From the NCBI GenBank assembly GCA_028714375.1, contig JAQTMK010000001.1, positions 243,636-307,635 of the forward strand: a stretch of DNA of 64,000 nt, written 5' to 3'. How positions within the stretch are numbered: the stretch's first letter is position 1; the number at the start of each line of letters is the position of its first letter. This document shows, piece by piece, positions 10,481-57,316 of the stretch. Position numbers and translations under genes: made by a program. The notes beneath the pieces are model-generated. The model did no database searches, had not been told where the DNA came from, and was given only the letters and a program-made list of their open reading frames with translations. The stretch is from Candidatus Nanoarchaeia archaeon (GTDB lineage Archaea > Nanobdellota > Nanobdellia > SCGC-AAA011-G17 > JACPNG01).

Positions 10481-10690
10481 ATGACAAAGAAAGTAGGATC
10501 AACAGGAAGATTTGGAGTAAGGTACGGAAGAAAGATAAGAAAGAGAGTTTTAGACATAGAAGTCAGACAAAAACAAAAACAAACCTGTCCTTACTGCAAG
10601 AAGAAACAAGTTAAGAGAATTGCATCTGGAATTTATAACTGTTCAAAATGCGGATCAAAATTCACAAGCAAGGCTTATGAGGTTGCATAA
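10481..10690 (+). CDS. rpl37ae: 50S ribosomal protein L37Ae
   Basis: 69 aa; GRFGVRYGRKIRKRV plus a CPYC...CSKCG zinc ribbon, typical of L37Ae. Confidence 0.88.
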   Translation: MTKKVGSTGRFGVRYGRKIRKRVLDIEVRQKQKQTCPYCKKKQVKRIASGIYNCSKCGSKFTSKAYEVA

Positions 10691-10692
10691 AC

Positions 10693-10848
10693 ATGGTTGC
10701 TAAAGAACAAGAAAAAACATACAAATGTTTGGATTGTGGAAAGCAGGTAAAATATGATTATGTAAGAAAAAAAATCAGATGCCCTTATTGTGGAAGTAAA
10801 ATTTTATACAAGGAAAGAAGTTTTAAAACAACTGTAATAGCAAGATAA
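10693..10848 (+). CDS. rpoP: DNA-directed RNA polymerase subunit P (Rpb12/RpoP)
   Basis: Not on the ORF track (51 aa). MVAKEQEKTYKCLDCGKQVKYDYVRKKIRCPYCGSKILYKERS carries the RpoP zinc ribbon (YxCxxCG...RCPxCGxKIL); it follows L37Ae as in many archaea. Confidence 0.75.
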   Translation: MVAKEQEKTYKCLDCGKQVKYDYVRKKIRCPYCGSKILYKERSFKTTVIAR

Positions 10849-17652: not shown

Positions 17653-18489
17653 ATGCCAATTAATGCAGGTTTTGAGTTTGGGAAAGCAGAACGTAAGTTT
17701 CACGAAGCTGTAACTATCCATGAAAAGATGGAAGCTCTTAAGGAGATGTACAGGACTGCTCCCAAACACAAGTCTTCTGAAGGTTTGCTTAAAGAAATCA
17801 AAATCAAGATGGCTAAGTACAAGGAACTGATGGACAGGGAGAGAAAACAGAAAAAAGGTAAAGTAGCAAAATATTCAATAAAAAAAGAAGGTGCAGCAAC
17901 CATTACGTTGGTAGGTACAACAAATTCTGGGAAATCAACCTTATTAAAAAAACTGACAAATTCAAATCCCTTAATCTCAGAATATCCATTTACAACCCAG
18001 GATCCAGAAATTGGAACAATGGATTATAAGGGAGTAAAGTTACAGATTGTTGAACTTCCAGCAATAGTTAAGGATTTTATGCATTCCAAGAATGGCTTGG
18101 CTTTGATGTCAATTATAAGAATCTCAGATTTAATAGTCCTGATGTATAACAACGAAGAGGAAAGAAAATTATTATATAAAGAACTTGAAGATGAACAGCT
18201 AAATATTTTAGAGTATAAAAAACAAAACAATATAAAAGATTTAATGTGGGATCATTTGGATATGATTAAGGTTTATACAAAACAGCCAGGAAAAGGGAAA
18301 GATTACCCTCCAATGGCGCTTCCAAAAGGCTCAACTCTTAAAGACATAGCGCAAAAAGTTCATAAGGACTTTATCAAGAAATTTAAATTTGCAAGATTAT
18401 GGGGAAATTCTGTCAGATTCCAGGGAGCACAGGTTGGACTAAGTCATATTCTTCACGACGAAGATATTGTAGAATTTCATCTTAAATAA
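17653..18489 (+). CDS. DRG/Obg-class GTPase with a C-terminal TGS domain
   Basis: G1 motif GTTNSGKST, YPFTT switch region, C-terminal TGS-like segment; shorter than canonical DRG. Confidence 0.7.
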   Translation: MPINAGFEFGKAERKFHEAVTIHEKMEALKEMYRTAPKHKSSEGLLKEIKIKMAKYKELMDRERKQKKGKVAKYSIKKEGAATITLVGTTNSGKSTLLKKLTNSNPLISEYPFTTQDPEIGTMDYKGVKLQIVELPAIVKDFMHSKNGLALMSIIRISDLIVLMYNNEEERKLLYKELEDEQLNILEYKKQNNIKDLMWDHLDMIKVYTKQPGKGKDYPPMALPKGSTLKDIAQKVHKDFIKKFKFARLWGNSVRFQGAQVGLSHILHDEDIVEFHLK

Positions 18490-20589: not shown

Positions 20590-21297
20590 ATGTTAAAGGC
20601 AGATTTACACATTCATACGAATTATATCCAAAAAGGAGAGGGAAAGTACTCCCCAAAATGGTTAATAGACCATATGGCTAAATGGGGGTATGAAGTTTTG
20701 GCAATTACAGAACACTCAACCCTTAATGGAGCATTTGTTAAGAAAAGCTATTCAAATGCGTTGGATACTTACTTTAAATTTAAGGATTATGCAAAAGAAA
20801 AGAATATCTTATTAATTCCTGGAGTTGAAAGACACATAGAGGGGGTTGAGGTTCTAATTTTAAATTATAATAATTTTGAAGAGATAAATACCTTTAAAGA
20901 TTTACAAAAAGTAAGGCAGAAAGGAGGGCTGATAATTGCTCCACACCCTTATTATCCCTGGGGATTAAATGGAAAACTTGAAGAAAACATAAAATATTTT
21001 GACGCATTAGAAAGGACAGTGCACTACCTTAAAGGATTTGATAGTTTAAATGAAAAAGCAGAAGAAATCGCAAAAAAATACAAAAAAACGATGGTAGCAA
21101 ACTCAGATGCACACTGGAAGTTTCAATTAAACAGGAATGCTACTCTTATAGATGCAGAAAAAAACATAGATTCTATTTTAGATGCAATAAGAAAAAATAA
21201 AGTTGAAATTCAAACTAAACCACTGACAACAAAACAATATTTTTTTACAACAATGTGGGTAATCAAATCAAAAATCAGAAAGTTATTTACTGTTTAA
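20590..21297 (+). CDS. PHP-domain metal-dependent phosphoesterase
   Basis: N-terminal ADLHIHTNY and AITEHS histidine motifs of the PHP family. Confidence 0.7.
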   Translation: MLKADLHIHTNYIQKGEGKYSPKWLIDHMAKWGYEVLAITEHSTLNGAFVKKSYSNALDTYFKFKDYAKEKNILLIPGVERHIEGVEVLILNYNNFEEINTFKDLQKVRQKGGLIIAPHPYYPWGLNGKLEENIKYFDALERTVHYLKGFDSLNEKAEEIAKKYKKTMVANSDAHWKFQLNRNATLIDAEKNIDSILDAIRKNKVEIQTKPLTTKQYFFTTMWVIKSKIRKLFTV

Positions 21298-22705
21298 GAT
21301 GTTTATTTAATAATTCAGAAGCTTTTTTACCATCCACCTTCCCACGGTATTTTTTCATTATCTCGCCCATCAAGGCCCCAAAGCTTAAGTTTTTGTTCTT
21401 GTGGATAATCTCCTTGATTTCTTTTTCAATTTCTTTTTCATCAACCTGTTCGTATTTTTTTAGATCAGCATCACCCTTGGTTGCAAAATCAACTAAAATC
21501 TCATAAACAGCATCTTTCCCAACTTTGCCTTCATTGTAATAACCCAAGGCATTTTCTATCATAGGTATCGTAACTTCTTTGTCAAACCTTGACTGAATCT
21601 CTTTTCTGACCTCAACCAAAACATTTGCAATGAATTCAGGGTTTACTTTGGAAAATTTATGAATATAACTTTCAAAATCAATATCCATCTTGATTAATTC
21701 TCTGGATAGTTCTTCACTAAACTTATATTTTTCAATAAATTTATTTGTTTTTTCAGATATTAATTCAGGTAACTCAAGTGAGTCTAACATCTTTTTGGTA
21801 ATCTTTATAATTTTTATATCAGTTTCAGGATACATTCTTGATGCTCCAGGCATTGGTCTCTGATATTCTGTTGTGAAATCCGGATTTGCTTTTCTTACAT
21901 GACCTTCTTCATTTTTGGTTTTTAACTGCCTGTGGATTTCATTATCAATTGTTCTTGGAATATTTTTTAGGTCTTGAAATCCTTTTATTTCAATTCTGTT
22001 ATGCCCCTTAATACTTACATTAACATCCTGTCTTATGCTTCCAATTCCTCTTTTTACTTTTCCAGTAGATCTTAAAATCATACCAATGATAGAAGCAACT
22101 TCCCGGGCATGCTCGCTGTCTTTGATCTCTGGCGCAGTTGCAATTTCAATTAAACCAACTCCCAGTCTATCTAACCTATAAGTTATGGAATTATTTTCTT
22201 CCTTTACTTTCTTAGCAGCCTCTTCCTCTAAACAAACAGTTTCAATATTAACTTTTCCTTTGCTTGTATTGATAAAACCATTAGTTCCAATCAAAGCAGT
22301 TCTTTGAAATCCAGAAACATTGCTTCCATCTACAACGGTTTTTCTCATAAACTGAATACTATCAACAACTTTGCAGTTTAATAATAAACAGATTTGCAAT
22401 GCAATATCCAATGAATCTTTGTTTAGTTCATGTGGTGGTTCTTCGTCATATTCAACCAAACAGCTGGAACTTGAACAGGCCTCGTAGATAACTTCTTTGT
22501 CCTTGGACATTTCAAACTCAGCAGCCCTGTCTATTTTTCCAGTCTCTCCGGCTATTGCTCTTAATTTTCTTTTAAACTTAATATTGGGTTCATTTTCATC
22601 ATTAACGATTGCAGGACATTTGCAGAATAACTTTCTTCCTTCAATCTGTTGATGGATCTCTAATCCAGATTTAAAACCCAGTTCTTTATAGTTAATCATT
22701 ATCAT
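21287..22705 (-). CDS. gatE: Glu-tRNA(Gln) amidotransferase subunit E-like (compact GatE/GatB-family)
   Basis: GLEIHQQI...KLFCKCP N-terminus typical of GatE; a C-terminal GatB/YqeY-like domain; adjacent to gatD. At 472 aa it is shorter than the usual ~620-aa GatE. Confidence 0.6.
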   Translation of the reverse strand: MIMINYKELGFKSGLEIHQQIEGRKLFCKCPAIVNDENEPNIKFKRKLRAIAGETGKIDRAAEFEMSKDKEVIYEACSSSSCLVEYDEEPPHELNKDSLDIALQICLLLNCKVVDSIQFMRKTVVDGSNVSGFQRTALIGTNGFINTSKGKVNIETVCLEEEAAKKVKEENNSITYRLDRLGVGLIEIATAPEIKDSEHAREVASIIGMILRSTGKVKRGIGSIRQDVNVSIKGHNRIEIKGFQDLKNIPRTIDNEIHRQLKTKNEEGHVRKANPDFTTEYQRPMPGASRMYPETDIKIIKITKKMLDSLELPELISEKTNKFIEKYKFSEELSRELIKMDIDFESYIHKFSKVNPEFIANVLVEVRKEIQSRFDKEVTIPMIENALGYYNEGKVGKDAVYEILVDFATKGDADLKKYEQVDEKEIEKEIKEIIHKNKNLSFGALMGEIMKKYRGKVDGKKASELLNKHLKQ

Positions 22706-22746
22706 CTTAGAATTATATTGGTTTATATTCTTTACTTTTTTGAAAA

Positions 22747-24018
22747 CTAAATAAATTCTAATCCAATTCTTTTATTAATTTCTCCTTTTAGGTTAGTAGA
22801 AATCATTTGTTTTACTTGATCTTTTTTGTAGTTCCCAAGCAACCACGCCAGTTTAATATAAGCAGTTTCAGTTGTCATATCCTCTCCAGAGATAACTCCA
22901 ATCTTTTGCAGTTCTCTTCCAGTAGAATAAACATTCATGTTAACTCTTCCAAAAATGCATTGGCTTGTCATAACAATAACACAGCTTTTGCTTAATTTTT
23001 TTAAGGCATTGAATATTTTTTTATTTTCAGGAGAATTGTCAATTGAAATATGTCCCAGTCCAGTCCCTTCAATAACCAATCCCTTATAACCTTTAAAACT
23101 TTCAATTTGTTTTGAATTTAAATTTGGATATGTTCTTAAAATTCCAACTTTTTCCTCAAATTTATTTTTTGATTTCCAAGCTCCTTTTTCATTCTTTAAT
23201 TCTTTAATCATTTTAATCTTATTTTTAGAATAATTTACTTCAGCAATAGCTTCATCATTAATAATCTTGAATGCATCTCTTCTGGAGCTGTGTAGTTTTC
23301 TGGTTTTTAATGCAGGCATGATTAGACAAGTATCATCGTTGATGTCTTTGTGCATACAGATTGCAACTCCAGTAAATTCAGTATTTGCAATAAAATATGT
23401 GGCATTAATCAGATTTAATGCAGCATCACTGCTCCCCCTATCACTTGATCTCTGAGAACCGACCAAAACTACCGGTACTGGCAGATTATCAAACATAAAA
23501 CTTAAAGCAGCAGCGCTATAATGCATAGTGTCAGTTCCGTGTCCGATAATAATCCCCTTTACACCGCTTTTAATTTCTTTTTCAATTGCTTTTGATATAT
23601 TAACATAGTCCTTGAATCTTAAATTTTCAGAAAAAACATTGGAAACAAAAATACTTTTGATATTAGCAATCTTTTCCAGTTCCGGAAACATTGAAACTAA
23701 CTCTTCAGGTTCAAATCTTGCTACAACTCCACCAGTATTATAATCAACTTTTGAAGCGATTGTTCCCCCAGTATGTAATATTGAGACTGTGGGTAAGTTT
23801 TTGTTGTGCTTAACCTTTACAGTTGAAGATTTTATATCAATTTTTTTGTCAAGAATTTTAACTTTTTTAATGTCTTTGATGTTTATTCCAACATTATATC
23901 CTGACTCTAGTTTTAAAAACAAAGTTTCTGAATCAGAATTAGGCATGACTATTCCTTTATAGACTTCATCCTTTAATTCAACCTCTATTTTTTCTAAACC
24001 TTTAAATTTTTTAACCAT
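22747..24018 (-). CDS. gatD: Glu-tRNA(Gln) amidotransferase subunit D
   Basis: Asparaginase-like motifs ILHTGGTIAS and GHGTDTMHYSAAALSF; 423 aa; adjacent to the gatE-like gene. Confidence 0.8.
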   Translation of the reverse strand: MVKKFKGLEKIEVELKDEVYKGIVMPNSDSETLFLKLESGYNVGINIKDIKKVKILDKKIDIKSSTVKVKHNKNLPTVSILHTGGTIASKVDYNTGGVVARFEPEELVSMFPELEKIANIKSIFVSNVFSENLRFKDYVNISKAIEKEIKSGVKGIIIGHGTDTMHYSAAALSFMFDNLPVPVVLVGSQRSSDRGSSDAALNLINATYFIANTEFTGVAICMHKDINDDTCLIMPALKTRKLHSSRRDAFKIINDEAIAEVNYSKNKIKMIKELKNEKGAWKSKNKFEEKVGILRTYPNLNSKQIESFKGYKGLVIEGTGLGHISIDNSPENKKIFNALKKLSKSCVIVMTSQCIFGRVNMNVYSTGRELQKIGVISGEDMTTETAYIKLAWLLGNYKKDQVKQMISTNLKGEINKRIGLEFI

Positions 24019-26235: not shown

Positions 26236-27993
26236 ATGGATTATCTGGAACTAGCTAAATGTTATGATAATTTAGAAAAAACTACTAAAAGACTTGAAAA
26301 AACAGAAATCATAGCAGAATTAATCAAAAAAGCACCTAAGGAAGTTCTGAAACAGATAATGTATCTGATTAACGGAAAAGTTTTTCCGATTTATGATGAA
26401 AGAAAAATCGGTGTTTCTTCTAAGATTGCAATTAAAGCCTTGGCCCAGACAACAGGAACTTCAGCAGAAAAAATAGAGTCTATGATGAAGAAAAAAGGAG
26501 ATTTGGGATTGGTAGCAGAAGAATTAATTCAAACAAACAAACAAAAAACACTTTTCAGTAAAAAATTAACAATTGCAAAAGTTTTTGAAAATATTTCTAA
26601 CTTAGCAAACATGCAGGGGCAGGGAACAGTTAATAGGAGAGTGCAATTAATCTCAGAATTATACTCCAATGCTTCCCCCCTTGAGGCAAGATATATAACA
26701 AGAACCTTATTGGATGTTTTAAGAGTTGGTGTTGCAGAGGGAACAATACGTGACTCATTGTTATGGGCCTTTTTCCCAAAAATGGTATCATATGATAAGG
26801 AAAAACAGGAAATTGTGCTTACGGGTTCAAGAGATGAGTATAATGAATTGATGGATAAAATACAGCATGCCTATAATATGTCTAATGATTTTTCTGAAAT
26901 TGCTTTAGCTCTTAAGGAAAACAAATTAGATTCGCTAAAAAAAATAAAAATTAGTCTGGCCAAACCAATTAATCCAATGCTTGCTATTAAAGTAGAGTCT
27001 ATTAAAGAGGCCTATGAAATCCTTGGCAAAAAAGTTCTTTGGGAATACAAATTGGATGGTTTTAGGGGTCAGATTCACAAGCTCGGGAAGAATAAATATG
27101 AAATTTACACAAGAAGGTTAGAAAAAGTTACAAACCAATTTAAAGAATTAATCCCAAGATTAGAAAAACACGTTAAGGGAGATTCTTATATTTTGGATAC
27201 AGAGTTTGTCGGGTATGATCCAAAAACAAAAAGACCAAGGCCATTCCAGTATATCTCTCAGAGAATAAAAAGAAAACACAATATTGAGAAAGTTGCAAAA
27301 GAGTTTCCTGTGGAAATTAATGTTTTTGATGTTCTTTATCTTGACGGGAAAAATCTAATGGATCTAAGTCAGATTGAAAGAAGAAAAATATTGGAAAAAA
27401 TAATCAAAGAAGAAAAATTTAATATTATTCTGACAAAATCCCTGCTTACAGAAAATCAGAAAGAAGTTGAAAAATTTTATAAGGAATCTTTGAAGGCAGG
27501 CAATGAAGGTTTGATGGGAAAACAGATAGAAAAAGATTACAAGCCTGGCCGTCATGTTAATGGATGGATAAAATTAAAGCCAATTAAGGAACCATTGGAC
27601 TTGGTTATAACCGGAGCACAATGGGGAGAAGGGAAAAGAACTTCTGCATTTAGTTCATTTACTCTTTCATGCAGGTCAGATGGCAAATTTTTGGAAGTTG
27701 GAAAGGTTGGTACAGGAATTAAAGAAAAAGATGCAGAACTTACATTTGAATCTCTTACTAAATTATTAAAACCACTAATATTGAAACAAAAAAATCAATC
27801 TGCTGAGATAAAACCAAGGCTCGTTGTTGAAGTTAACTATGAAGAGATACAAAAGTCTCCAACCTATAGTTCAGGGTATGCTTTAAGATTTCCAAGAGTC
27901 ACTAGGATAAGATATGACAAATCAGAAAAGAATGCAAACACCGTCGAAGATGTCAAAAGAATATACACTAAACAAAATAAGTCTCTTATATAA
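26236..27993 (+). CDS. lig: ATP-dependent DNA ligase
   Basis: Adenylation motif EYKLDGFRGQIH (KxDG), downstream nucleotidyltransferase and OB-fold regions. Start trimmed to M at 26236 (MDYLELAKCY) to avoid overlap with the nitroreductase gene. Confidence 0.88.
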   Translation: MDYLELAKCYDNLEKTTKRLEKTEIIAELIKKAPKEVLKQIMYLINGKVFPIYDERKIGVSSKIAIKALAQTTGTSAEKIESMMKKKGDLGLVAEELIQTNKQKTLFSKKLTIAKVFENISNLANMQGQGTVNRRVQLISELYSNASPLEARYITRTLLDVLRVGVAEGTIRDSLLWAFFPKMVSYDKEKQEIVLTGSRDEYNELMDKIQHAYNMSNDFSEIALALKENKLDSLKKIKISLAKPINPMLAIKVESIKEAYEILGKKVLWEYKLDGFRGQIHKLGKNKYEIYTRRLEKVTNQFKELIPRLEKHVKGDSYILDTEFVGYDPKTKRPRPFQYISQRIKRKHNIEKVAKEFPVEINVFDVLYLDGKNLMDLSQIERRKILEKIIKEEKFNIILTKSLLTENQKEVEKFYKESLKAGNEGLMGKQIEKDYKPGRHVNGWIKLKPIKEPLDLVITGAQWGEGKRTSAFSSFTLSCRSDGKFLEVGKVGTGIKEKDAELTFESLTKLLKPLILKQKNQSAEIKPRLVVEVNYEEIQKSPTYSSGYALRFPRVTRIRYDKSEKNANTVEDVKRIYTKQNKSLI

Positions 27994-28164
27994 CAATTTT
28001 GTAGTGGTAACTTTTTAAAATGAACATTCGAAAATAAAAATCTTTAAATACTCAAGTATTTACTGTTTACTTAACTTTATATCCACATGCAGTAAGTAAT
28101 TAATTTCGAACCTTCAAGGTGGTTATAATAAAAAAGAGGTTTTATACCAGGAGGAAGATGGTTA

Positions 28165-28989
28165 ATGATTGTCAAAGAAGAATTTTTAAACAAGCTAAGA
28201 AGGTCTTTCAACCTTAACTTATACGAAGCAAGGATTTGGACAGCATTATTGTCCAGAGGAATATCCACTGCTGGAGAACTTTCTGAGATTGGTAATGTAC
28301 CAAGATCAAGAGCATATGATGTTTTAGAATCACTGGAGAAAAAAGGATTTGTGGTTATGAAATTAGGAAAGCCAATCAAATACCTTGCAGTAGATCCTGG
28401 TGAAGTTGTTGACAGAGTCAAGAAAAATGTTAAAATCAAGGCTGACGAAGATACTAAAAAATTAGATAATCTAAAAGGAACTCCGGTTTTGAAAGAACTT
28501 AATACTTTACATAAAGACGGAATCGAATTTGTAGAACCAACAGATTTGTCTGGTGCAATAAGGGGGAGACATAATATCTATACCCATTTGGAATTAATGA
28601 TAAAGAATGCAGAAAAGTCTGTAACATTGATTACTTCTTCAAAAGGATTGTTGAGAAAGTTTGATGCTTTAAAACCAGAGATGGAAAGATTAAAGAAAAA
28701 AGGTGTTGCAATTAAAATTGCTGCTCCAATGACAAAAGAAACTATGCCAATCTTAAAAGATTTGATGAAAGTTGCAGAAGTCAGGGATGCTAAGAATGTA
28801 AATGCAAGATTCTGTATCGTTGATGATAAAGATCTGGTATTTATGGTTTTAGATGACTCAGCTGTCCATCCAACCTATGATGTTGGAGTTTGGATAAATA
28901 CTCCTTTCTTTGCTTCTGCCTTAAATAACTTGTTTGGCGTTGCTTGGAAAGAAATGAAGTCAGCAGACAAGGTTACTTTTAAACCTTAA
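28165..28989 (+). CDS. TrmB-family transcriptional regulator
   Basis: N-terminal wHTH (YEARIWTALLSRGISTAGELSEIGNVPRSRAYDVLESLEKKGFV) plus a C-terminal effector domain, typical of TrmB; AGGAGGA ribosome-binding site upstream. Confidence 0.7.
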   Translation: MIVKEEFLNKLRRSFNLNLYEARIWTALLSRGISTAGELSEIGNVPRSRAYDVLESLEKKGFVVMKLGKPIKYLAVDPGEVVDRVKKNVKIKADEDTKKLDNLKGTPVLKELNTLHKDGIEFVEPTDLSGAIRGRHNIYTHLELMIKNAEKSVTLITSSKGLLRKFDALKPEMERLKKKGVAIKIAAPMTKETMPILKDLMKVAEVRDAKNVNARFCIVDDKDLVFMVLDDSAVHPTYDVGVWINTPFFASALNNLFGVAWKEMKSADKVTFKP

Positions 28990-30019
28990 TTTTTTTCATT
29001 ATTTTTTTTGATCTTTCTTTAATTGTTTGTGATTTTAATTGCTTAAGTTTTGCTGCTTCTGTATAGGGTCTTGGCCCAAACTTTGAAACATTGACTACTT
29101 CTGGTTTTATTTTTTCTATTAATTCCAAAGTTTTCTTGAAATCCTCTTCTGTCTCAGTCGGATAACCCACAATAATATCAGTTGCTATATTTATTCCTTT
29201 TACGCCTTTTCTGAATTTATTAACTAACCCAACAAAATCTCTTACTTTATATTTTCGGTTCATATCTTTTAAAACTTTATCAGAACCAGACTGAACAGGC
29301 ACATGTAAAAATTTGATGACCTTATCATTATTGTATATTTTAATCATATCATCAGCCATATTCAATATAAACTGGGGATTTGCCATCCCAATTCTTATCT
29401 TAAAATCTCCCTTTATTTTTATTATATCACTAAGCAAAGAAACCAGATTTTCATTTATATCAAATCCATAACAGCCAGTATCCTGGGCAGTTAAATATAT
29501 TTTTTTAGCACCACTTTTAACAACTTTTTTTATTTGTTTGACTATATCTTCTTTTTTATAAGATCTTAAATTACCTCTTACATTTTTCACAGCGCAATAA
29601 CCACATCGATTAACACAGCCTTCAGCTATAGGAATAATTGCCAATCCCTCTTCAGGAAATATTTTTAATTTATTTTCTTTTTTTTCTGAAAAGACTATTT
29701 TTTTATTGTCTTTCATCAATTTGATAAATTTAGTAATAGAATTTGTATCAAAAAGACCGTCTGCTTCTATTTTACCTTTTAAAATCTTTGGTAAACATCC
29801 ACCAACATAAACCTTTTTTCCAGATTCTCTTACTCTTTTAATATAACTCAACACCCTGTTCTGGGTTCTATCCTTAACACCGCAGGAGTTAACAATAGCT
29901 ATTTTGGCCTTAGATAAATCATTCACAACCTCAAAACCCTTGCTTCTAAGGAAATTAGCCATGAAATTGCTGTCTGCCTTGTTTAATGCACATCCAAACG
30001 TTTTAATATATATTTTCAT
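28979..30019 (-). CDS. Radical SAM methylthiotransferase (MiaB/MtaB-like tRNA modification enzyme)
   Basis: N-terminal MTTase domain (MKIYIKTFGCALNKADS), radical SAM motif CVNRCGYC, C-terminal TRAM-like region. Start trimmed to M at 30019. Confidence 0.8.
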   Translation of the reverse strand: MKIYIKTFGCALNKADSNFMANFLRSKGFEVVNDLSKAKIAIVNSCGVKDRTQNRVLSYIKRVRESGKKVYVGGCLPKILKGKIEADGLFDTNSITKFIKLMKDNKKIVFSEKKENKLKIFPEEGLAIIPIAEGCVNRCGYCAVKNVRGNLRSYKKEDIVKQIKKVVKSGAKKIYLTAQDTGCYGFDINENLVSLLSDIIKIKGDFKIRIGMANPQFILNMADDMIKIYNNDKVIKFLHVPVQSGSDKVLKDMNRKYKVRDFVGLVNKFRKGVKGINIATDIIVGYPTETEEDFKKTLELIEKIKPEVVNVSKFGPRPYTEAAKLKQLKSQTIKERSKKIMKKIKV

Positions 30020-30116
30020 AACCCCAAAGTCTAAAATAAAATTTATATACCTTCCTATGCTTTTAAGTATACAAATATTTAAAAAACTATCAGATATATA
30101 ATAAAAGGTGATATAA

Positions 30117-30338
30117 ATGCCATTGCAAGAAAAACCCCAATATAAAGACAAAGAAGGGAGTGTCCTTTATGGATTTTCCCAAACACATTTAGAAAAAACA
30201 AATAAACACCTAGGTCAGGTAGTTTTTGGACTAAAGATATTGATAATATTATTTGTTCTGATGCTTGTCGGTACAGCTTTATTGATAGGTTGGATATCCT
30301 ATAATGATGTTGTAACAAGAATTATATACAGGTATTAG
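30117..30338 (+). CDS. Small membrane protein (1 TM), hypothetical
   Basis: 73 aa with hydrophobic LKILIILFVLMLVGTALLIGWI; intergenic position upstream of the RSH gene; overlaps an antisense ORF. Confidence 0.3.
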   Translation: MPLQEKPQYKDKEGSVLYGFSQTHLEKTNKHLGQVVFGLKILIILFVLMLVGTALLIGWISYNDVVTRIIYRY

Positions 30339-30379
30339 TTTTGAATAAATTTATTAATTTTTCTTACCTTTAAAAATAC

Positions 30380-32284
30380 ATGCAACTACGAAATCTTTTA
30401 AGGAAAATAGAATCCTATAACAAAAATGCAGATTTTGAATTAATCAGGAAAGCCTACGAATTTGCAGATAAATACCATAAAAACCTAAAAAGAGCATCAG
30501 GTGAACCTTATATTCAGCATCCGTTAAATGTCGCATTTATCCTTGCAGAATTTAAGATGGATACAGAAAGCATTGTAGCTGCCCTCCTTCATGATACAGT
30601 TGAAGATACTCCCGCCTCCCTTGAAGAGATTGAAAAAGAATTCGGAAAAGAGATTAGGGAATTAGTTGATGGATTGACAAAGCTAAACCAGATAAAATCC
30701 AAGGAAATAAGGGATGCAGAGTCTATAAGAAAATTATTCTTAGCAACCTCTAGTGATATAAGGGTTGTTATAATAAAACTTGCTGACAAATTGCACAACA
30801 TGCGTACTTTAGAATACCTTTCAGAGGAAAGAAGAAAAACCATCGCAGAATCTACTCTTGAAATCTATGCTCCATTGGCCTCCAGATTGGGGATGTATGC
30901 AGTAAAAGCAGAACTGGAGGATTTAGCATTTAAGATGCTGCATCCAGATATCTATGAAACTTTTCTAAAAAAATTCTCAAACACTAAAAAAGAAAGAGAA
31001 AATGATATTAAAAAAATAAAGAATATTATTGAGAAAAAACTTGAGGAACAAAAAATTCCTGCAAGAATTTTTGGAAGACCAAAACACATTTATAGTTTAT
31101 ATAAGAAAATGATTCAGAAGAAAAGAACCTTCGAAGAGATTTATGACTTGGTTGGTCTTAGAATCATAACTGATAATGTAAAACACTGCTATGAAATTTT
31201 GGGGATAATACACAATGAATGGACTCCAATCCCAAAAGAATTTTCAGATTATATTGCAATGCCAAAACAAAACAGGTATCAAAGTCTTCATACTGCAGTT
31301 ATGGCTCTTAATCAACCAGTTGAATTTCAGATTAGAACCGAAGAAATGGATAAAGTAGCAGAAGAAGGAGTTGCTGCCCACTGGAAATATAAAGGACTTG
31401 AAATTAAAGATAAAAGTTTTGATAAAAAATTATTATGGCTTAGAGAATTATTGAGAATAAAAAAAGAAAAACTTCCAACCCAGGAATTTAATGATTTCTT
31501 AAAAACAGATTTATTTGGGGATGAGATATATGTCTTTACCCCAAAATCCGAGGTCATAGCTCTTCCAAAAGGCTCAACCCCCATAGATTTTGCATATGCA
31601 ATTCACACAGATCTTGGGGATAGATGTACTGGAGCAATTGTTAATGGGAGAATTGTTTCACTAAGGCACGAACTAAAACACGGGGATATTGTGAAGATAT
31701 TAGCTCAAAAAGAACCAAAACCAAAGATGGACTGGCTAAAAATTGTAAAGACAACAAAGGCAATATCAAAAATAAGGAAATTCTTTAGAGAACACGAAAA
31801 AATATTAGTATCAAAACCAAAGAAGACAGAGGCAATTAAAGAAGAAATATCAAAGTCATTATTTATTGTTGATAATATGGCATATAAAACAAAAATTGCT
31901 CAATGCTGCAACCCTCTTCCAGCCAACAAGGTTGTTGCTTATCTTAATGGGAGAATATATACAGTGCATAATGAAAATTGTAGCTCTCTTGATAGCAAGG
32001 ATAAATCCAAGATTAAGCCATGTTCCTGGAATAATATTAAAAATTTTGAATTAACTCTGAATATTTTAGTTAAAGAAAGAATTGGAGTTTTAGCAGATAT
32101 AATAAACACAATTGCATCAACAGAAACAAGCATACTCAAAGCTGTTGCAAAAAAACCAGTAAAAGAAAGGGCCCAGATTATGATAACAATTAATTTTGAG
32201 GATTTGGAACATCTAAAAGAAATCATCTCAAGAATACAAAAACTTATGGGCGTAATTTCAATAGGCTTAGAACCTAAATTTTAA
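30380..32284 (+). CDS. Long RelA/SpoT homologue: (p)ppGpp synthetase/hydrolase with HD, synthetase, TGS and ACT domains
   Basis: HD hydrolase motif HPLNVAFIL...AALLHDTVEDT; synthetase motifs GRPKHIYSLYKKM...YDLVGLRIIT...YQSLHTAV; TGS (GSTPIDFAYAIHTDLGDRC...NGRIVSL) and a C-terminal ACT-like region. 634 aa. Confidence 0.85.
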   Translation: MQLRNLLRKIESYNKNADFELIRKAYEFADKYHKNLKRASGEPYIQHPLNVAFILAEFKMDTESIVAALLHDTVEDTPASLEEIEKEFGKEIRELVDGLTKLNQIKSKEIRDAESIRKLFLATSSDIRVVIIKLADKLHNMRTLEYLSEERRKTIAESTLEIYAPLASRLGMYAVKAELEDLAFKMLHPDIYETFLKKFSNTKKERENDIKKIKNIIEKKLEEQKIPARIFGRPKHIYSLYKKMIQKKRTFEEIYDLVGLRIITDNVKHCYEILGIIHNEWTPIPKEFSDYIAMPKQNRYQSLHTAVMALNQPVEFQIRTEEMDKVAEEGVAAHWKYKGLEIKDKSFDKKLLWLRELLRIKKEKLPTQEFNDFLKTDLFGDEIYVFTPKSEVIALPKGSTPIDFAYAIHTDLGDRCTGAIVNGRIVSLRHELKHGDIVKILAQKEPKPKMDWLKIVKTTKAISKIRKFFREHEKILVSKPKKTEAIKEEISKSLFIVDNMAYKTKIAQCCNPLPANKVVAYLNGRIYTVHNENCSSLDSKDKSKIKPCSWNNIKNFELTLNILVKERIGVLADIINTIASTETSILKAVAKKPVKERAQIMITINFEDLEHLKEIISRIQKLMGVISIGLEPKF

Positions 32285-33374
32285 GGAATTTTTTTCTAAA
32301 ACTATTTGCAAACTTTCTTATAAAACCAGCTTTGAGATATAATGCGTGTTCTGGACACGCCTCAATACAGCAAAAACACCTTATACATTTTTTTGTATCA
32401 ACAGTAGGATAGGGATTTAATGTTATTGCCTGTTTAGGACATTTTCTCATACACACACCACATTTTATACATTTATCTTCACGGACAGTTATTTTTTCCT
32501 GTGGAATAAACATATTTATTATTCCAAGTATCTTCCTTGTAGAAAGTCCTGGAGGTTTTTTATAGTGAGTATGATGCATCTCCCCCTTTATCTCTATCTT
32601 TTCTGTGAATAATTTCTGTTCAAGTATTAGTTTGTTTGTTGGAACATCTTTTCTTTTCCATCCTATTATGTCTGTGACTAAAAGATCAATTGCAAACTGG
32701 GAATTGGATGCCAAGATTAATCCAGTGTGTTTTGCATCTCCTGCAGCAGGACCTTCTCCTTCCATTCCAATTACAGCATCAACAAGAGTTAAATCTGGCT
32801 TTACAATTTTATTTAGGTCAAGAAGTAATTGTGCAAATTCTTTTTCAGTTGGAGCATAGGCATGCAATTGTTGTTTTTTTGTCCCAGGGATTACCCCATA
32901 CATATTTTTTATTGCGCACGTCAATTTCATCAACGAATGTGTTTTTAATCTTGGAACATTGATTACATAATCTGCCTTAAATAATATCTCAGGCAAGTCT
33001 AACTCTTTTATAATCTTCCCGCCAGGAATCTTGACTTTTACAGATTTGACTTTTTCAAAATTAATGACTGTAGCATTATATTTTTTTGCTACGCCCAATA
33101 CCCCAGATTTTTCTATTGCTAAATCAGTATTTTGAAGAGAAGAGTCTCCAATTATAATTTTATTTTTATTTTCTTTTAGAACTCTGCATAAAGCATCAAT
33201 TATCGCAGGATTTGTAACAACTAAATGTCCTTTTCTGTATGCCCCTAATAAATTTGGTTTAATCAGAACGGTTTTTCCGTGAGGCAAAGTAAAATTACTT
33301 AAAATTTTATTTATAGCTTTATCAATTTTGTCTTGTTTATAACTTTCACAATTAACTATAAATACCTCAACCAT
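32274..33374 (-). CDS. DUF362-domain protein with C-terminal 2x[4Fe-4S] ferredoxin motifs
   Basis: CIKCGVCMRKCP and CIRCFCCIEACP cluster-binding motifs at the C-terminus. Confidence 0.65.
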   Translation of the reverse strand: MVEVFIVNCESYKQDKIDKAINKILSNFTLPHGKTVLIKPNLLGAYRKGHLVVTNPAIIDALCRVLKENKNKIIIGDSSLQNTDLAIEKSGVLGVAKKYNATVINFEKVKSVKVKIPGGKIIKELDLPEILFKADYVINVPRLKTHSLMKLTCAIKNMYGVIPGTKKQQLHAYAPTEKEFAQLLLDLNKIVKPDLTLVDAVIGMEGEGPAAGDAKHTGLILASNSQFAIDLLVTDIIGWKRKDVPTNKLILEQKLFTEKIEIKGEMHHTHYKKPPGLSTRKILGIINMFIPQEKITVREDKCIKCGVCMRKCPKQAITLNPYPTVDTKKCIRCFCCIEACPEHALYLKAGFIRKFANSFRKKFLKI

Positions 33375-33411
33375 TTAGTTAATTTATTTTATCAATATTT
33401 AAAGATTTTGA

Positions 33412-34095
33412 TTACTTTTGAATAAGCCTTACTCTTTTTACTATGAGTTTACCAACATTTTTATTTTCCATAATAATATTAGAATCTTCTATACTTAATC
33501 TATTTTTAAAAATTGGGCCATCAACCACCAAGGTCTCAGCCTCCCCCCCTTCAAAAGCAACATTCATTTTAGTTATTTTTTCTATTTTGCTTAATTTTTC
33601 CACTTCTTTTTCATCGATTACAATTCCAAGCCATGATTTATCCAACCCTTCTGCAGAGACGCTGGTGATAATAAATTTAAAACCATCTTTTACCATGCTT
33701 CTTAATAATCCAAGCTGATCCTTGCCCCAGAGAGGATTGATGCATGAAACTTTTAGATTGTCGCATATGTCCTGAATTCTTTTGGACTGATACGCAGAAG
33801 CAATCGCACCAGTAACAACCCCATCAATATTATATTTAATTATTGCTTCTTTAATCGCTTCAGCGAGATCTTTAAGTTCCTCTTCTTTTACCCCTTCAGT
33901 TTTGTATTGGATGATTGGAATTTCCATCGCTCTTGCCTGAATCTTGGTAAGATTTATATTTGGGGTATGGAACATATAGCTTTCTTTGTTTTTAGAAATA
34001 ATTGAAATTAAGCAAACAATCTCGTGTTCTTTCATGGCCTTAAATAAAGCATAACACGAATCTTTCCCGCCTGAAAATAAAACTCCAACTCTCAT
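33412..34095 (-). CDS. PP-loop ATP pyrophosphatase (diphthine-ammonia ligase/MJ0570-like)
   Basis: VLFSGGKDS PP-loop at the trimmed N-terminus (M at 34095); central core ...VSGAIASAYQ... Confidence 0.65.
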   Translation of the reverse strand: MRVGVLFSGGKDSCYALFKAMKEHEIVCLISIISKNKESYMFHTPNINLTKIQARAMEIPIIQYKTEGVKEEELKDLAEAIKEAIIKYNIDGVVTGAIASAYQSKRIQDICDNLKVSCINPLWGKDQLGLLRSMVKDGFKFIITSVSAEGLDKSWLGIVIDEKEVEKLSKIEKITKMNVAFEGGEAETLVVDGPIFKNRLSIEDSNIIMENKNVGKLIVKRVRLIQK

Positions 34096-34135
34096 AACTT
34101 TAACTAAAAGGTTTAATTTAAAAAGGTTTTTACAA

Positions 34136-35470
34136 CTATTTATGATATTCAACCAATTGTTTGATGCTTCTTACTGCAGTCTCAGGGTAATCAAAACAGA
34201 CAATTCCTCTTGACTCCAGAATTCTTTTGATTTTTTCAGTTGGAGATCCTCCTGTAGAGGCGACAATAATTGGTTTTTTATTTTTATATTTAGAAATAAC
34301 ATTAACAATGTTTGGAGTTAGTAATGGAGTTTGATAGTCAAGAGTTATTAGGATAATGTCTATGTTTTTATCTTTGACAGCATATTCCAAAGCCAGACCA
34401 TATCTTTCATCTGTTGCATCACCAATCAAATCCATTGGATTATCAACAATGACAAGTTTTGGGAATTTCTCCTTTAGTTTTTTCTTGGTTTCACTGCTAA
34501 GCTCAGCTAATTTAAGACCATATTTGATTATATTATCTGTGCCAAGAATACCAAATCCTCCGCCGTTTGTAATTGTTAGTATCCTATCTCCTTTTGGTTT
34601 TATACTTTTTTCTAAAAGTCTGGAATAATTAAACATATCCTCTAAATTCTCAGCATAAACAGTTCCTGCCTGTTTAAATGCTCCAAGGTAAACTCTTGGA
34701 TCTCCAGCTAATGCTCCTGTGTGACTTAACGTAGCTTTGTTTCCTTCATGGGTTAACCCTCCCTTGAGCACAATAACTGGTTTTTTGATGTTCTTGCAAA
34801 TCTCTAAACATTTTTTCCCATCCTTAACAGCTTCAATATAAACACATATGACTTTAGTGTTTTTGTCTTTTCCAAGATAATCCAAGTAATCTACCGAATC
34901 TAAATTTGTAGCATTACCAAAGCTTATGAACTTACTGACTCCATAATTTTTAGAAGCCATAAGATCCAAAATCGCTCCACCAATCGCTCCAGACTGACAT
35001 ATAAAACTTATACCTCCTTTCCCAGGCCTTTGAACTCTCTCAGAAGGTAAGAATATAGCATCAATTCCAGAATAAGCATCGTAAATTCCTAGACAATTAA
35101 CTCCAACAGCCTTGATATTTCTCTGATCTAATTCTTCTTTGAGTTTTAATTCTAGTTTATCATTCCCAATTTCTTTAAAACCAGCAGAAATAATTACCAC
35201 ATTCTTACAGTTTACAGAGGGCATCTCTTTAATAATATCTATTACAAAAGCAGCAGGAACTGCAATCACAGTCAGATCTATTTTTTTGTTTATATCTGAA
35301 AGTTTCTTGTATATCTTATTTCCATACAATGAATTAACATTAGGATTAACTCCGTACACATCCCCTTTAAAATTCCTGAGTAATTGATTGAATAAAATTG
35401 CTCCAACCTTGTTTGGTTCTCTTGATACTCCAACAACAGCTATTGACTTAGCTTCAAAGAAATTTTTCAA
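34136..35470 (-). CDS. ADP-forming acyl-CoA synthetase alpha-type subunit (CoA-binding / succinyl-CoA synthetase-like)
   Basis: N-terminal CoA-binding Rossmann (SIAVVGVSREPNKVG), the GILG... ligase-CoA domain, and a conserved His region (SHTGALAG). Confidence 0.75.
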   Translation of the reverse strand: MKNFFEAKSIAVVGVSREPNKVGAILFNQLLRNFKGDVYGVNPNVNSLYGNKIYKKLSDINKKIDLTVIAVPAAFVIDIIKEMPSVNCKNVVIISAGFKEIGNDKLELKLKEELDQRNIKAVGVNCLGIYDAYSGIDAIFLPSERVQRPGKGGISFICQSGAIGGAILDLMASKNYGVSKFISFGNATNLDSVDYLDYLGKDKNTKVICVYIEAVKDGKKCLEICKNIKKPVIVLKGGLTHEGNKATLSHTGALAGDPRVYLGAFKQAGTVYAENLEDMFNYSRLLEKSIKPKGDRILTITNGGGFGILGTDNIIKYGLKLAELSSETKKKLKEKFPKLVIVDNPMDLIGDATDERYGLALEYAVKDKNIDIILITLDYQTPLLTPNIVNVISKYKNKKPIIVASTGGSPTEKIKRILESRGIVCFDYPETAVRSIKQLVEYHK

Positions 35471-35501
35471 TTAACACCAATCACCTCAGAATAAAGATAA
35501 T

Positions 35502-35750
35502 CTATTTCTTTTTATTCTTTTTGGATTTTTCCAAAGCTTCATCAATTGCTTCTTTATCAAAACCAACAATGATTTCCCCATCAATATCAATGACCGGAAC
35601 TCCCATCTGTCCTGATTTTTCAATCATTTCTCTGGCTTTTTCTCTGTCTTCTCCAACATTAAATTCATTAAATTTTACGCCTTTTTCCTTTAGGTAAGCC
35701 TTTACTCTATGACACCACGGACACATATCTGTGGAATAGATGTTTATCAT
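35502..35750 (-). CDS. Glutaredoxin-like small redox protein
   Basis: 82 aa; CPWC active site, GVPVIDIDGEIIVGFD thioredoxin-fold C-terminus. Confidence 0.8.
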   Translation of the reverse strand: MINIYSTDMCPWCHRVKAYLKEKGVKFNEFNVGEDREKAREMIEKSGQMGVPVIDIDGEIIVGFDKEAIDEALEKSKKNKKK

Positions 35751-35767
35751 TTTTAAATCACCAAAAT

Positions 35768-36385
35768 TTAACCATGGTTAACATTATTTAAAAGTTTTGA
35801 ATTAACTAAAACAAGAAATAAACATATCAAGATAATATCCATAATCATCTCAGTAAATATGCTGTAAAAGAAAGTTTCTGGGAACATGACTATCAGATTG
35901 TCTTTTAGGGGATCAAGTATCCACAAATTATTGCTGAAAAAAAGCTCATGAAATTTGATAAATAAACTTGAAAAGTCAAAAATCAAAAATAAAAACAAAA
36001 TAAAAAATACAGTCAAGACAGAAAACCATAAGGAATTTTTTAATAATCTAAATTCTTTTTTCTTGATAAAATAAATTATATAAAAAACAATAAAAATCAA
36101 GCATAGATAAAACAAAACATTGGCAGCAACAATTAAATCTTTGACATCTTTTAGGTGCAATTTTTCTTTTTCATTGAAGAATTTAGTATCTAACTCTCCC
36201 TTTCCCTGCAAGTAATTTATCAAGTTATTATTTTCTTCAATAACCTTTTCTTTTCCAAAAGAATCATAAACCCCATTTTTGTCAAACTGTTTATCATAAA
36301 AATTTTCATTAAAAACCTCAAATTTAAATCCTAACAAGAATATAAATAAAACTGCAAAAATAATAAAATCTATTTTTAGCTTCAT
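35768..36385 (-). CDS. Integral membrane protein (DUF1461-like), hypothetical
   Basis: 205 aa with several hydrophobic helices. Confidence 0.5.
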   Translation of the reverse strand: MKLKIDFIIFAVLFIFLLGFKFEVFNENFYDKQFDKNGVYDSFGKEKVIEENNNLINYLQGKGELDTKFFNEKEKLHLKDVKDLIVAANVLFYLCLIFIVFYIIYFIKKKEFRLLKNSLWFSVLTVFFILFLFLIFDFSSLFIKFHELFFSNNLWILDPLKDNLIVMFPETFFYSIFTEMIMDIILICLFLVLVNSKLLNNVNHG

Positions 36386-37581
36386 CCTAATATTTTTGTG
36401 ACCTGTTTAAATCCATCAACTAATTTATTAGCGTCTTCTTCATTATTGTATAAATATAATGAAGCTCTTACGCTGCCTTTAATATTGTGTTTGTTAAACC
36501 ATGAATGCACGCAGTGTTGTCCAGACCTCATCATTATCTTTTTAGAATGATCTAACAATAAAGCAATCTGATGCACATCTTTGTTTTTATAGTTAAATGA
36601 AGTGATACCCGGCCTTAATCCAACATCTTCAGGACCAAGGATACTAACTCCCTCAATATTTCTTAATCCATCATCAATTATCTGATTTACTTTTAATTCC
36701 TGTTTCACAATATTGTCCATTCCAACTTTTCTTAGATATCTACATGCTTCTCCAAAACCAATTATTCCAGAATAATGTTGTAATCCTGCTTCAAATCTGT
36801 TTGGAACTTTTTCTATTTCATAACTGTTATAAGTGGAATTTGTTACAGTTTCTCCTCCAAGAATAAACTGTTCCATCTTATCTAAAATTTCTTCTTTCCC
36901 ATACAACATCCCTATACCTGTTGGACCTAACATTTTATGACCAGAACATGCAAACAAGTCAACATCCAATTTTTTAAGATCAATTTCTTTGTGTGGTGCA
37001 GACTGTGCTCCATCTAACATCGTTAAAGCTCCATTCTCATGCGCTATTTTGATTATTTCTTTTGCAGGGATGGTTGAACCATCTAAATTAGAAGTATGAA
37101 CCATGGATACTAGTTTGACATCTCTATTCATTTTTTCCTTAAACTCTTCCAAATCAAAAATCCCATCTTTGCTTCCAATAGTAGTGTGTTTTAATCCGTT
37201 TTTCTTGCATAATCTTATAACCGGTACTAAGTTTGAATTATGTTCTTTGTCTGTTGTGATTATTCCGCCGTTTATCTTTAATCCATTATAAACTAGATTT
37301 AATGATTCAGTAGTATTTTTAGAAAAAACAATCTGATCCTCTTTTTTTATATTAAGTAATTTTTGTATTTCCTTTCTTGCATTTAAAACTTCTTCATCAA
37401 CCTTTTTACTTATACTATGCATTCCTCTCCCACCACATCCAGGATACTCTTTGTAGTATTCATTTATTTTGTCTATTACTTGAATTGGTTTTAAACTCAT
37501 GCAGGCAGAATCCAAATAGGTAACTTTATTCAAAATTGGAAAATCCTGCCTTATCTTGTCAAAGTTCATAGAATTAAACAA
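36382..37581 (-). CDS. Cysteine desulfurase (SufS/NifS-type, class V aminotransferase)
   Basis: PLP-lysine region ACSGHKMLGPTGIGMLYG and a C-terminal catalytic Cys loop (RSGQHC). Confidence 0.85.
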   Translation of the reverse strand: MFNSMNFDKIRQDFPILNKVTYLDSACMSLKPIQVIDKINEYYKEYPGCGGRGMHSISKKVDEEVLNARKEIQKLLNIKKEDQIVFSKNTTESLNLVYNGLKINGGIITTDKEHNSNLVPVIRLCKKNGLKHTTIGSKDGIFDLEEFKEKMNRDVKLVSMVHTSNLDGSTIPAKEIIKIAHENGALTMLDGAQSAPHKEIDLKKLDVDLFACSGHKMLGPTGIGMLYGKEEILDKMEQFILGGETVTNSTYNSYEIEKVPNRFEAGLQHYSGIIGFGEACRYLRKVGMDNIVKQELKVNQIIDDGLRNIEGVSILGPEDVGLRPGITSFNYKNKDVHQIALLLDHSKKIMMRSGQHCVHSWFNKHNIKGSVRASLYLYNNEEDANKLVDGFKQVTKILG

Positions 37582-37603
37582 AATATAAAATTAATAAAGG
37601 TTT

Positions 37604-38050
37604 CTAAGGAACACATTGTCCATCTAAACAAGTACATTCCCCTTCTGGACAAGTACAATCTCCATCAATAGTACATTCACAATCAACATCCTCAGGATAG
37701 GTAGCTGGATTAAATATACATATATCATCCGAATCTGGACCATTACAGTTACCATGTGCAATTAAATTGTAAGCACCGATTCCAGAATAAATCAAACTTC
37801 CAATTAATAATATCAAAAAGAACCAGGAAAATACTTCAAAATGTTTGTATGTAAATGCAGCAACCTTAGGACTTTTCTTCATTAGTCTTCCTGTTATCTG
37901 TCCCTTTAATCTTTCATCCAATCCAGTTGTGCAGGGTCTGAATGTAATTCTTTTGAAAACACACTCAAAAGATTCTTTTGCAATAGTTCTGTATCTAACA
38001 GAAAAAATACCTAATATTCCAAACACAACCATTGCAATTACGCATATCAT
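37604..38050 (-). CDS. Membrane protein with a Cys-rich extracytoplasmic tail
   Basis: Two TM helices, then CNGPDSDDIC...CECTIDGDCTCPEGECTCLDGQC. Confidence 0.5.
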   Translation of the reverse strand: MICVIAMVVFGILGIFSVRYRTIAKESFECVFKRITFRPCTTGLDERLKGQITGRLMKKSPKVAAFTYKHFEVFSWFFLILLIGSLIYSGIGAYNLIAHGNCNGPDSDDICIFNPATYPEDVDCECTIDGDCTCPEGECTCLDGQCVP

Positions 38051-57220: not shown

Positions 57221-57316
57221 TGGGGATGCCAGGATTTGAACCTGGATCAATCGGTCTGGAGCTTTGGCTTAATTTTGGATTAATCGACCACTCTAGCCGA
57301 GTTGAGCTACACCCCC
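57221..57316 (-). tRNA. Intron-containing tRNA (96 nt); isotype unresolved, possibly Trp(CCA) with a non-canonical ~22-nt intron
   Basis: Minus-strand GGGGGTG/CATCCCC-A acceptor, D arm GCTC..GAGT, T arm CCAGGTTCAAATCCTGG; about 22 extra nt in the anticodon region. A CTCCA / TCCAAAA motif suggests CCA, but the cloverleaf cannot be closed unambiguously by eye. Confidence 0.55.

Follow-up and report, generated by a model that had tools for sequence, protein, structure and literature searches.

A compact, probably bifunctional Rel-type RelA/SpoT homologue native to a clade of DPANN archaea

In the present study, we analyzed a stretch of 64,000 nucleotides (hereafter, the window) from contig JAQTMK010000001.1 of the Candidatus Nanoarchaeia archaeon assembly GCA_028714375.1, where positions 30380..32284 carry the gene of a long RelA/SpoT homologue (RSH). 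With a probability of about 0.7, its product is a compact bifunctional Rel, native to a DPANN archaeon of the Woesearchaeota/Nanoarchaeia type, and belongs to a monophyletic clade that arose by an old transfer from bacteria and has been inherited vertically since. That it is a native and functional long RSH of a DPANN clade is highly probable, as judged from its residues and its relatives. Reviews and primary papers up to 2026 consider RSH proteins and (p)ppGpp signalling absent or negligible in Archaea (PMC10249747, PMC11646218, PMC12934967); against that view stands a conserved and catalytically intact long-RSH clade, widespread in Woesearchaeota-type DPANN genomes.

Family assignment and domain organization

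The protein of 634 amino acids (aa) scored 694.7 bits with the NCBIfam model TIGR00691 (spoT_relA), passing the family cutoff of 499.2, and matched solved Rel/RelA structures in the Protein Data Bank (PDB) with E ~1e-145 over residues 6-493, followed by a second match over the C-terminal zinc-finger and ACT region. The equivalog models for monofunctional RelA (NF008124, 413 bits against a cutoff of 728) and for SpoT (NF008303, 522 bits against a cutoff of 947) were both missed by a wide margin. The gene and its domains are as follows:

30380..32284, + strand: long RSH (Rel-type) gene, ATG start, 634 aa; from the open reading frame (ORF), TIGR00691 and PDB matches
30452..30895, + strand: HD (p)ppGpp hydrolase domain, residues 25-172; Pfam HD_4, E 2e-48
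31073..31393, + strand: SYNTH (p)ppGpp synthetase domain, residues 232-338; Pfam RelA_SpoT, E 1e-41
31526..31702, + strand: TGS domain, residues 383-441; Pfam TGS, E 2e-24
31712..31879, + strand: remnant of the alpha-helical (AH) domain, residues ~445-500; first helix and variable linker, site of the deletion
31880..31999, + strand: zinc-finger domain (ZFD), also called ribosome-intersubunit (RIS) domain, residues ~501-540; C509, C510, H530, C534
32039..32263, + strand: C-terminal ACT/RRM domain, residues 554-628; Pfam ACT_4, E 3e-12

The ZFD/RIS domain was assigned by alignment to the C-terminal domain of RelA; the precomputed match to PF28438 (RelA_RIS) is faint in this protein and is listed for clade members. 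An earlier note on this DNA had described an apparently bifunctional, full-length RSH at 30380-32284 with HDxxED, GRxK, YxSLH, TGS and ACT hallmarks. Indeed, the ORF is exact, the Pfam, NCBIfam and PDB matches lie far beyond chance, every hallmark was located in the 634-aa protein (HDTVED at residues 71-76, GRPKH at 232-236 and YQSLH at 300-304, besides the two domains), and both catalytic centres are intact by residue conservation. The term "full-length" is not quite accurate, as about 75 residues of the AH domain of bacterial Rel are absent; furthermore, the Cys3His zinc-finger/RIS domain (C509/C510, H530, C534), missing from the list of the earlier note, is also present. By most criteria, the protein is a predicted bifunctional Rel, except that its AH domain is incomplete and RxKD is missing; we class it with the DPANN long-RSH clade, as a compact structural variant of Rel.

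Genomic context and contig integrity

Long RSHs are overwhelmingly bacterial, and the closest solved structures and many database matches of this protein are bacterial as well, which would be expected if a bacterial RSH had been joined to archaeal sequence during assembly or binned with it. We attach a negligible probability to such an artefact. In the first place, archaeal genes immediately flank the RSH on both sides, with GatE/GatD, FtsZ, a nitroreductase, an ATP-dependent DNA ligase, a TrmB regulator and a MiaB-like radical-SAM enzyme upstream, and DUF362/ferredoxin, diphthine-ammonia ligase and an ADP-forming acyl-CoA-synthetase-like protein downstream. The archaeal markers located in the window are:

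604-798: RpoN (Pfam)
1238-1561, - strand: Rpp21 (Pfam)
10481-10690: L37Ae (Pfam)
10693-10848: RpoP (Pfam)
21287-24018, - strand: GatE and GatD

Prefoldin beta, S9 and SepF were also confirmed by Pfam farther out. The RpoN, RpoP, L37Ae, Rpp21 and GatDE genes that the earlier note had listed as archaeal were thus recovered, and Pth2, from the same list, was not found among the window ORFs scanned. Moreover, the DNA ligase located 2.4 kb upstream of the RSH has a 100% identical counterpart in NCBI, encoded on a 382-kb contig of a "Candidatus Nanoarchaeia archaeon" metagenome-assembled genome, and its named relatives are all Woesearchaeota, Nanoarchaeota or "archaeon".

The composition of the RSH gene is likewise typical of the window genes (GC content, z = 0.14; GC content at third codon positions, z = 0.12; codon usage, rank 12/39). 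An independent assembly agrees over 10.1 kb, since the Logan assembly of SRR22315509 has a contig of 10,104 bp that is 100% identical to window positions 27513-37616 and covers both gene junctions. The exact RSH protein was absent among the homologue-search matches (best, 64%) and is on record only in this Logan contig. In addition, the gene order is kept in a different species, where a 509-kb contig (locus L081) carries an RSH with 63% identity inside a 13-kb collinear block with 74% nucleotide identity, sharing with the window the order GatE-GatD-FtsZ-nitroreductase-ligase-TrmB-radical-SAM enzyme-small ORF-RSH-DUF362. Altogether, six clade members have archaeal neighbours. Flanks, composition, the identical Logan contig and synteny therefore exclude a chimera for practical purposes; the check for a chimeric contig that the earlier note had proposed returned an archaeal, unjoined contig.

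The only break in this collinearity (L081:13088-16057 versus window 33412-34152) was observed between DUF362 and the acyl-CoA-synthetase-like gene, where the related genome has GlmS, a second nitroreductase and an Fe/Mn superoxide dismutase, and the window has diphthine-ammonia ligase.

A monophyletic archaeal clade

The protein search returned two clearly separated groups of RSH matches. The short group (the best ~78 clusters and two lower down) consists of proteins of 612-662 aa that cover the whole query with 45-64% identity; the bacterial group consists of proteins of 716-739 aa in which PF19296, the AH domain, is present and which align well only over the N-terminal ~75%. At 90% identity, the short clade counts at least 80 clusters, whose proteins are all roughly 630-645 aa long and 43-64% identical to one another. 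Its members with a readable organism name are denoted "Candidatus Nanoarchaeia archaeon" or "Nanoarchaeota archaeon", and those with an informative context or organism name are all archaeal. Four further members (46-51% identity) were found in four different neighbourhoods, each with archaeal markers (Rpp30 and deoxyhypusine synthase; TrmB and signal-peptide peptidase; aIF2-gamma and S6e; and Rpp30).

Trees were constructed by neighbour-joining from Kimura distances (corrected p-distances) over 628 well-occupied columns, excluding the region of the deletion, and with a bacterial sample biased to the nearest matches. In the tree of 189 sequences (81 short proteins and 108 bacterial Rel), the short group formed a clade with a bootstrap of 100/100, in which identity ranged from 43 to 100% (mean 54%); identity to bacteria had a mean of 41% and a maximum of ~51%. 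In a denser tree of 198 sequences, which drew on the 150 best representatives from a 1.84-billion-protein library searched exhaustively with a profile, the short set was still exactly monophyletic. A scan of GTDB genomes with single-protein peptide patterns retrieved one archaeal locus (L002) and 78 bacterial loci, the latter serving as outgroup set. When only the C-terminal 191 residues were searched for homologues, 2 weak fragments resulted, as the word index yielded too few candidates.

These results are in line with the survey of Li et al. (2021), in which RelA/SpoT was present in 69% of Diapherotrites, 41.7% of Woesearchaeota, 21.3% of Pacearchaeota and 19% of Nanoarchaeota genomes (PMC8407392).

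Origin of the clade

Most plausibly, the clade descends from one old bacterium-to-archaeon transfer, with vertical inheritance since. Two features of the trees weigh against this history. The bootstrap of the clade fell to only 50/100 in the denser tree; moreover, the bacterial sister group of the clade was not resolved by neighbour-joining, where no joining node exceeded a bootstrap of 30. Since no supported node ties the clade to one bacterial group, we name no donor lineage.

The earlier note had suggested horizontal acquisition, by a small-genome archaeon, of an enzyme type found only sporadically in archaea, and had itself pointed to a placement within a widespread archaeal clade as the outcome speaking against it; the phylogeny places the RSH within such a clade, broad and monophyletic, of at least 80 clusters. 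A recent, lineage-specific acquisition by this archaeon could draw on the bacterial type of the RSH family, on other bacterial-type genes in the window (Lgt and Lit) and on the high load of cross-domain lateral gene transfer (LGT) in DPANN archaea (Li et al., PMC8407392). Nevertheless, it is highly improbable, given that the best bacterial match reaches ~51% identity versus 64% for archaeal relatives, that the clade is monophyletic with a common indel, that a relative with an RSH of only 63% identity still shows the synteny, and that the composition of the RSH is fully ameliorated. In fact, because the 13-kb collinear block is shared with a species whose RSH is 63% identical, the gene is, as read from gene order, inherited vertically within its lineage. 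Of the horizontal acquisition proposed in the earlier note, a bacterial ultimate origin thus stands as most plausible, and a sporadic or recent event in a single lineage does not.

The opposite possibility, that archaeal RSH is ancestral, passed down from the last common ancestor and never transferred from bacteria, would fit a clade that is old, diverse and monophyletic and has no identifiable bacterial donor. We hold it to be very unlikely, since the members identified by name or context are of the Nanoarchaeota/Woesearchaeota type or simply "archaeon", and long RSHs are absent from the other archaea surveyed by Atkinson et al. in 2011 (PMC3153485). Furthermore, the clade reaches 47% identity to some bacterial Rel, while bacterial Rel among themselves show a minimum of 22% and a mean of 49%; the distance between clade and bacteria thus falls within the bacterial spread, and the clade looks nested in bacterial diversity. 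A bacterial origin of DPANN RelA/SpoT was also predicted by Li et al. (2021) (PMC8407392).

Catalytic and sensor residues

For the analysis of residues and of the deletion, the query was aligned with 120 homologue-search matches, 80 of which are short proteins. The hydrolase residues H47, H71, D72, E75, D136 and N140 are invariant in 80/80 clade members and all present in the query, and D76 of HDxxED is kept in 64/80, query included. On the synthetase side, R233, K235, D256, Y300, S302, H304, E315 and Q317 are invariant in 80/80. Regarding the sensor domains, H409 of the TGS domain, also invariant in 80/80, aligns with H420 of Bacillus subtilis Rel (6yxa), which stacks on the 3' CCA end of uncharged tRNA (PMC7797070), and C510, H530 and C534 of the zinc finger are invariant across the clade alignment. 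Compared with the nearest species, the best-conserved parts are the SYNTH core (82% identity) and the TGS domain (92%), versus 63% for the whole protein; of the folded domains, ZFD and ACT show the lowest conservation (35-53%). Invariant catalytic and sensor residues at an overall identity of only 43-64% argue for purifying selection on both activities. In this context, the RSH is, to judge by its conservation pattern, maintained by selection across a deep archaeal clade, and the protein probably both makes and degrades (p)ppGpp in vivo.

One synthetase motif departs from the bacterial pattern. At residues 287-290 the query has EFSD, where bacterial Rel has RFKD, and does not carry the RxKD signature. 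The same position reads EFDD in 42/80 clade members, begins with E in 61/80 and reads RFKD in only 6/80, compared with RFKD in 37/40 of the closest bacteria; the basic RxKD is replaced in the clade by an acidic E-x-[D/S/N/K]-D. RxKD has been tied to bifunctional Rel, and acidic ExDD to monofunctional RelA (Sajish et al., 2009; PMC2666561). ExDD and an intact HDxxED occur together in 31 clade members, a combination that, at the level of motifs, falls outside the RxKD/ExDD dichotomy of Sajish et al.

Deletion in the AH domain and predicted structure

Relative to the closest bacterial Rel, the 80 short proteins share a single block deletion of ~75 residues after query residue 488. Consequently, the segment from W452 to C510 spans 59 aa in the query and 57-62 aa in every member of the short clade, versus mostly 120-150 aa in bacteria, and PF19296 had no Pfam match in the query or in the other short-clade members. 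The first AH helix is conserved, with P448, W452, A461 and I465 invariant; the linker behind it varies strongly in sequence (8-26% identity).

The AlphaFold2 model computed from the clade alignment (mean predicted local distance difference test score, pLDDT, 84; predicted template-modelling score, pTM, 0.63) presents a helix at 459-472, a low-confidence stretch (pLDDT below 50) at 476-490, a beta-rich zinc-finger domain and, at the C-terminus, the beta-alpha-beta-beta-alpha-beta pattern of ACT/RRM. In this model, the helical domain between TGS and zinc finger is reduced to one conserved helix and a flexible linker. Foldseek matched the model to RelA on the 70S ribosome, B. subtilis Rel and full-length SpoT, and its N-terminal half to Thermus thermophilus Rel with a template-modelling (TM) score of 0.87 and 2.7 A.

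Bacterial Rel with intermediate connectors (70-92 aa, in proteins of 661-685 aa) are few and not sister to the clade. Proteins of this size were considered as stepping stones to the short form and rejected, since they are not sister to it and the two contexts checked are bacterial. The AH domain seems to tolerate partial loss in bacteria too.

Proposed function

As in bacterial Rel, the enzyme would toggle between two states, a compact one with the hydrolase switched on and an extended one with the synthetase switched on. Away from its activator it would be compact and a net hydrolase, following the bacterial paradigm, where Rel off the ribosome is a net hydrolase (PMC7797070). The trigger would be the engagement of the C-terminal domains with a signal of the translating machinery, most likely uncharged tRNA on a stalled archaeal ribosome; upon binding of TGS, the remaining AH helix, ZFD and ACT/RRM, the enzyme would open and synthesize (p)ppGpp, transferring pyrophosphate from ATP onto the 3'-OH of GDP/GTP. 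The outcome would be an alarmone read-out of amino-acid supply and a growth brake in metabolically dependent archaea. DPANN archaea import most amino acids and nucleotides from partners (PMC8407392). By analogy with bacterial Rel, activation that depends on ribosome and tRNA is a tentative proposal, to which we give somewhat less than an even chance, and a real (p)ppGpp stringent response run by DPANN archaea, contrary to the textbook and review view, is possible but still less probable.

The functional scheme also has evidence to contend with. Rel is adapted to the bacterial ribosome, and the archaeal ribosome is different. D76 is substituted in 16/80 clade members, and hydrolase activity may not be universal across the clade, although the motif of the query is intact. 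Furthermore, AH and TGS together contact the A-site tRNA in bacterial Rel (PMC7797070), and AH is mostly gone here; activation by ribosome and tRNA may be weakened or changed by this loss.

A different account would be a real enzyme without a ribosome-coupled stringent response, acting in another role or on another signal. It could be mainly a (p)ppGpp hydrolase or scavenger, e.g., on nucleotides from the partner or host, or it could be a synthetase under non-ribosomal signals (metabolites via ACT, free tRNA), with C-terminal domains that are only autoinhibitory. The truncation of AH, which B. subtilis Rel requires along with TGS to recognise tRNA specifically (PMC7797070), would agree with such roles, as would a predicted structure that best resembles compact full-length SpoT (TM 0.53), the net hydrolase activity of Rel off the ribosome, the low conservation of ZFD and ACT among the folded domains, and the dependence of DPANN archaea on partners for nucleotides (PMC8407392). 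However, the synthetase core is among the best-conserved parts and its catalytic residues are all invariant, and it is difficult to account for an invariant TGS H409, Cys3His finger and first AH helix unless tRNA or the ribosome is sensed; on balance, we consider this account unlikely. Within the stringent-response reading, the loss of AH and the presence of ExDD beside an active hydrolase would be an adaptation through which, if true, a stringent factor of bacterial type could sense uncharged tRNA on archaeal ribosomes, or through which its product spectrum is altered.

A DRG/YchF-like GTPase with MMR_HSR1 and a C-terminal TGS domain, encoded at window positions 17653-18489 (+), is a candidate (p)ppGpp effector. 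In bacteria, GTPases of the translation machinery are well-established targets of (p)ppGpp.

Upstream region and other features of the window

A small conserved ORF precedes the RSH:

30117..30338, + strand: small conserved ORF, 73 aa, with one predicted hydrophobic helix near the C-terminus, 41 nt upstream of the RSH

Its product is 71% identical to that of the ORF in the same position in the related species (L081:9720-9959), where the RSH pair is only 63% identical, and it is annotated as a gene in both other assemblies. The small ORF had no Pfam family match and was not present at the more distant RSH loci; it may be co-transcribed with the RSH. Regarding the TATA-like TTTATTAA located 23-30 nt upstream of the RSH start, we claim no promoter, this being an AT-rich match in a genome of 32% GC.

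Two bacterial-type genes of lipoprotein metabolism were also identified in the window. Prolipoprotein diacylglyceryl transferase (Lgt; 59672-60418, -) matched Pfam LGT with E 7e-74, and lipoprotein intramolecular transacylase (Lit; 35768-36385, -; E 7e-34) is kept at the syntenic position L081:17770-18390. No LspA-like protein was recognised beside Lgt. Together, Lgt and Lit may provide bacterial-style lipoprotein acylation in this DPANN lineage.

Further features include a tRNA of 96 nt (57221-57316, -; Rfam, 46.9 bits), not detected by ARAGORN in default mode, in which an extra ~20 nt after the anticodon region suggests an archaeal intron-containing tRNA. A lone 5S rRNA (1611-1726, -) lies beside a 514-aa DDE transposase (DDE_Tnp_1; 2061-3605, -), and the pair is located between the ribosomal-protein/RpoN/Rpp21 cluster and several unannotated ORFs. 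Moreover, a Fic/DOC family match (E 8e-7; 7652-8083, +) overlaps by 7 nt a preceding ORF of 145 aa (7221-7658), which had no family match; the two ORFs may be a toxin-antitoxin-like pair.

Significance

The gene itself is nothing categorically new, since its group was reported in 2021 and is routinely annotated by NCBI. Nevertheless, the DPANN long-RSH clade is under-recognised, because the wider field continues to describe Archaea as lacking the alarmone system. In the literature searched, we found no description of the clade-wide AH deletion or of the hybrid ExDD/HDxxED motif pattern, and no explicit demonstration of clade monophyly and vertical inheritance. The protein is a compact, clonable 634-aa candidate for the question of whether an archaeal lineage makes alarmones, and for a second one, whether a minimal helical domain is enough for a Rel sensor to function on archaeal ribosomes. 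With the common deletion and the ExDD/HDxxED hybrid, the clade offers natural experiments on two features that bacterial biochemistry deems functionally important.

Comparison with known systems

The query belongs to the DPANN "RelA/SpoT" group of Li et al. (2021) (mSystems, PMC8407392), for which that study gives presence percentages and an LGT prediction only. Its nearest relatives are 63-64% identical, and those annotated by NCBI are named "RelA/SpoT family protein [Candidatus Nanoarchaeia archaeon]".

Among bacterial enzymes, the bifunctional Rel proteins compared were those of B. subtilis (6YXA/6HTQ), mycobacteria (8FR8, deposited as "GTP pyrophosphokinase RelA"), RelSeq (1VJ7) and T. thermophilus (6S2U). 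The archaeal protein shares with them the order HD-SYNTH-TGS-(AH)-ZFD-ACT, HDxxED and the synthetase residues, the TGS histidine (H420 equivalent) and the Cys3His finger, with 47% identity to B. subtilis Rel in the Foldseek alignment. It differs from them by the absence of ~75 AH residues, by EFSD in the place of RxKD, and by its archaeal host and ribosome.

With Escherichia coli RelA (5IQR, 5KPV), which gave the best full-length Foldseek match, the protein has in common an acidic motif of the ExDD type (PMC2666561) and the C-terminal sensor domains; however, the HD domain of RelA is degenerate and inactive and its AH domain is full, whereas HDxxED and the hydrolase residues of the archaeal protein are intact. 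SpoT (7QPR) presents the same bifunctional architecture, and the predicted conformation is closest to compact full-length SpoT (TM 0.52-0.53), but identity in the structural alignment is only 23-25%.

Two bacterial Rel proteins, P0146 (locus L086, 671 aa) and P0187 (locus L088, 672 aa), have a moderately shortened connector between TGS and ZFD (70-92 aa) and match the clade profile in one stretch. Their contexts are bacterial, with flagellar hook genes and Rnf for P0146, and bL27 and a response regulator for P0187. Both are 47-53% identical to ordinary bacterial Rel versus 43-47% to the archaeal clade, and they are not its sister. We regard their connectors as independent, smaller deletions.

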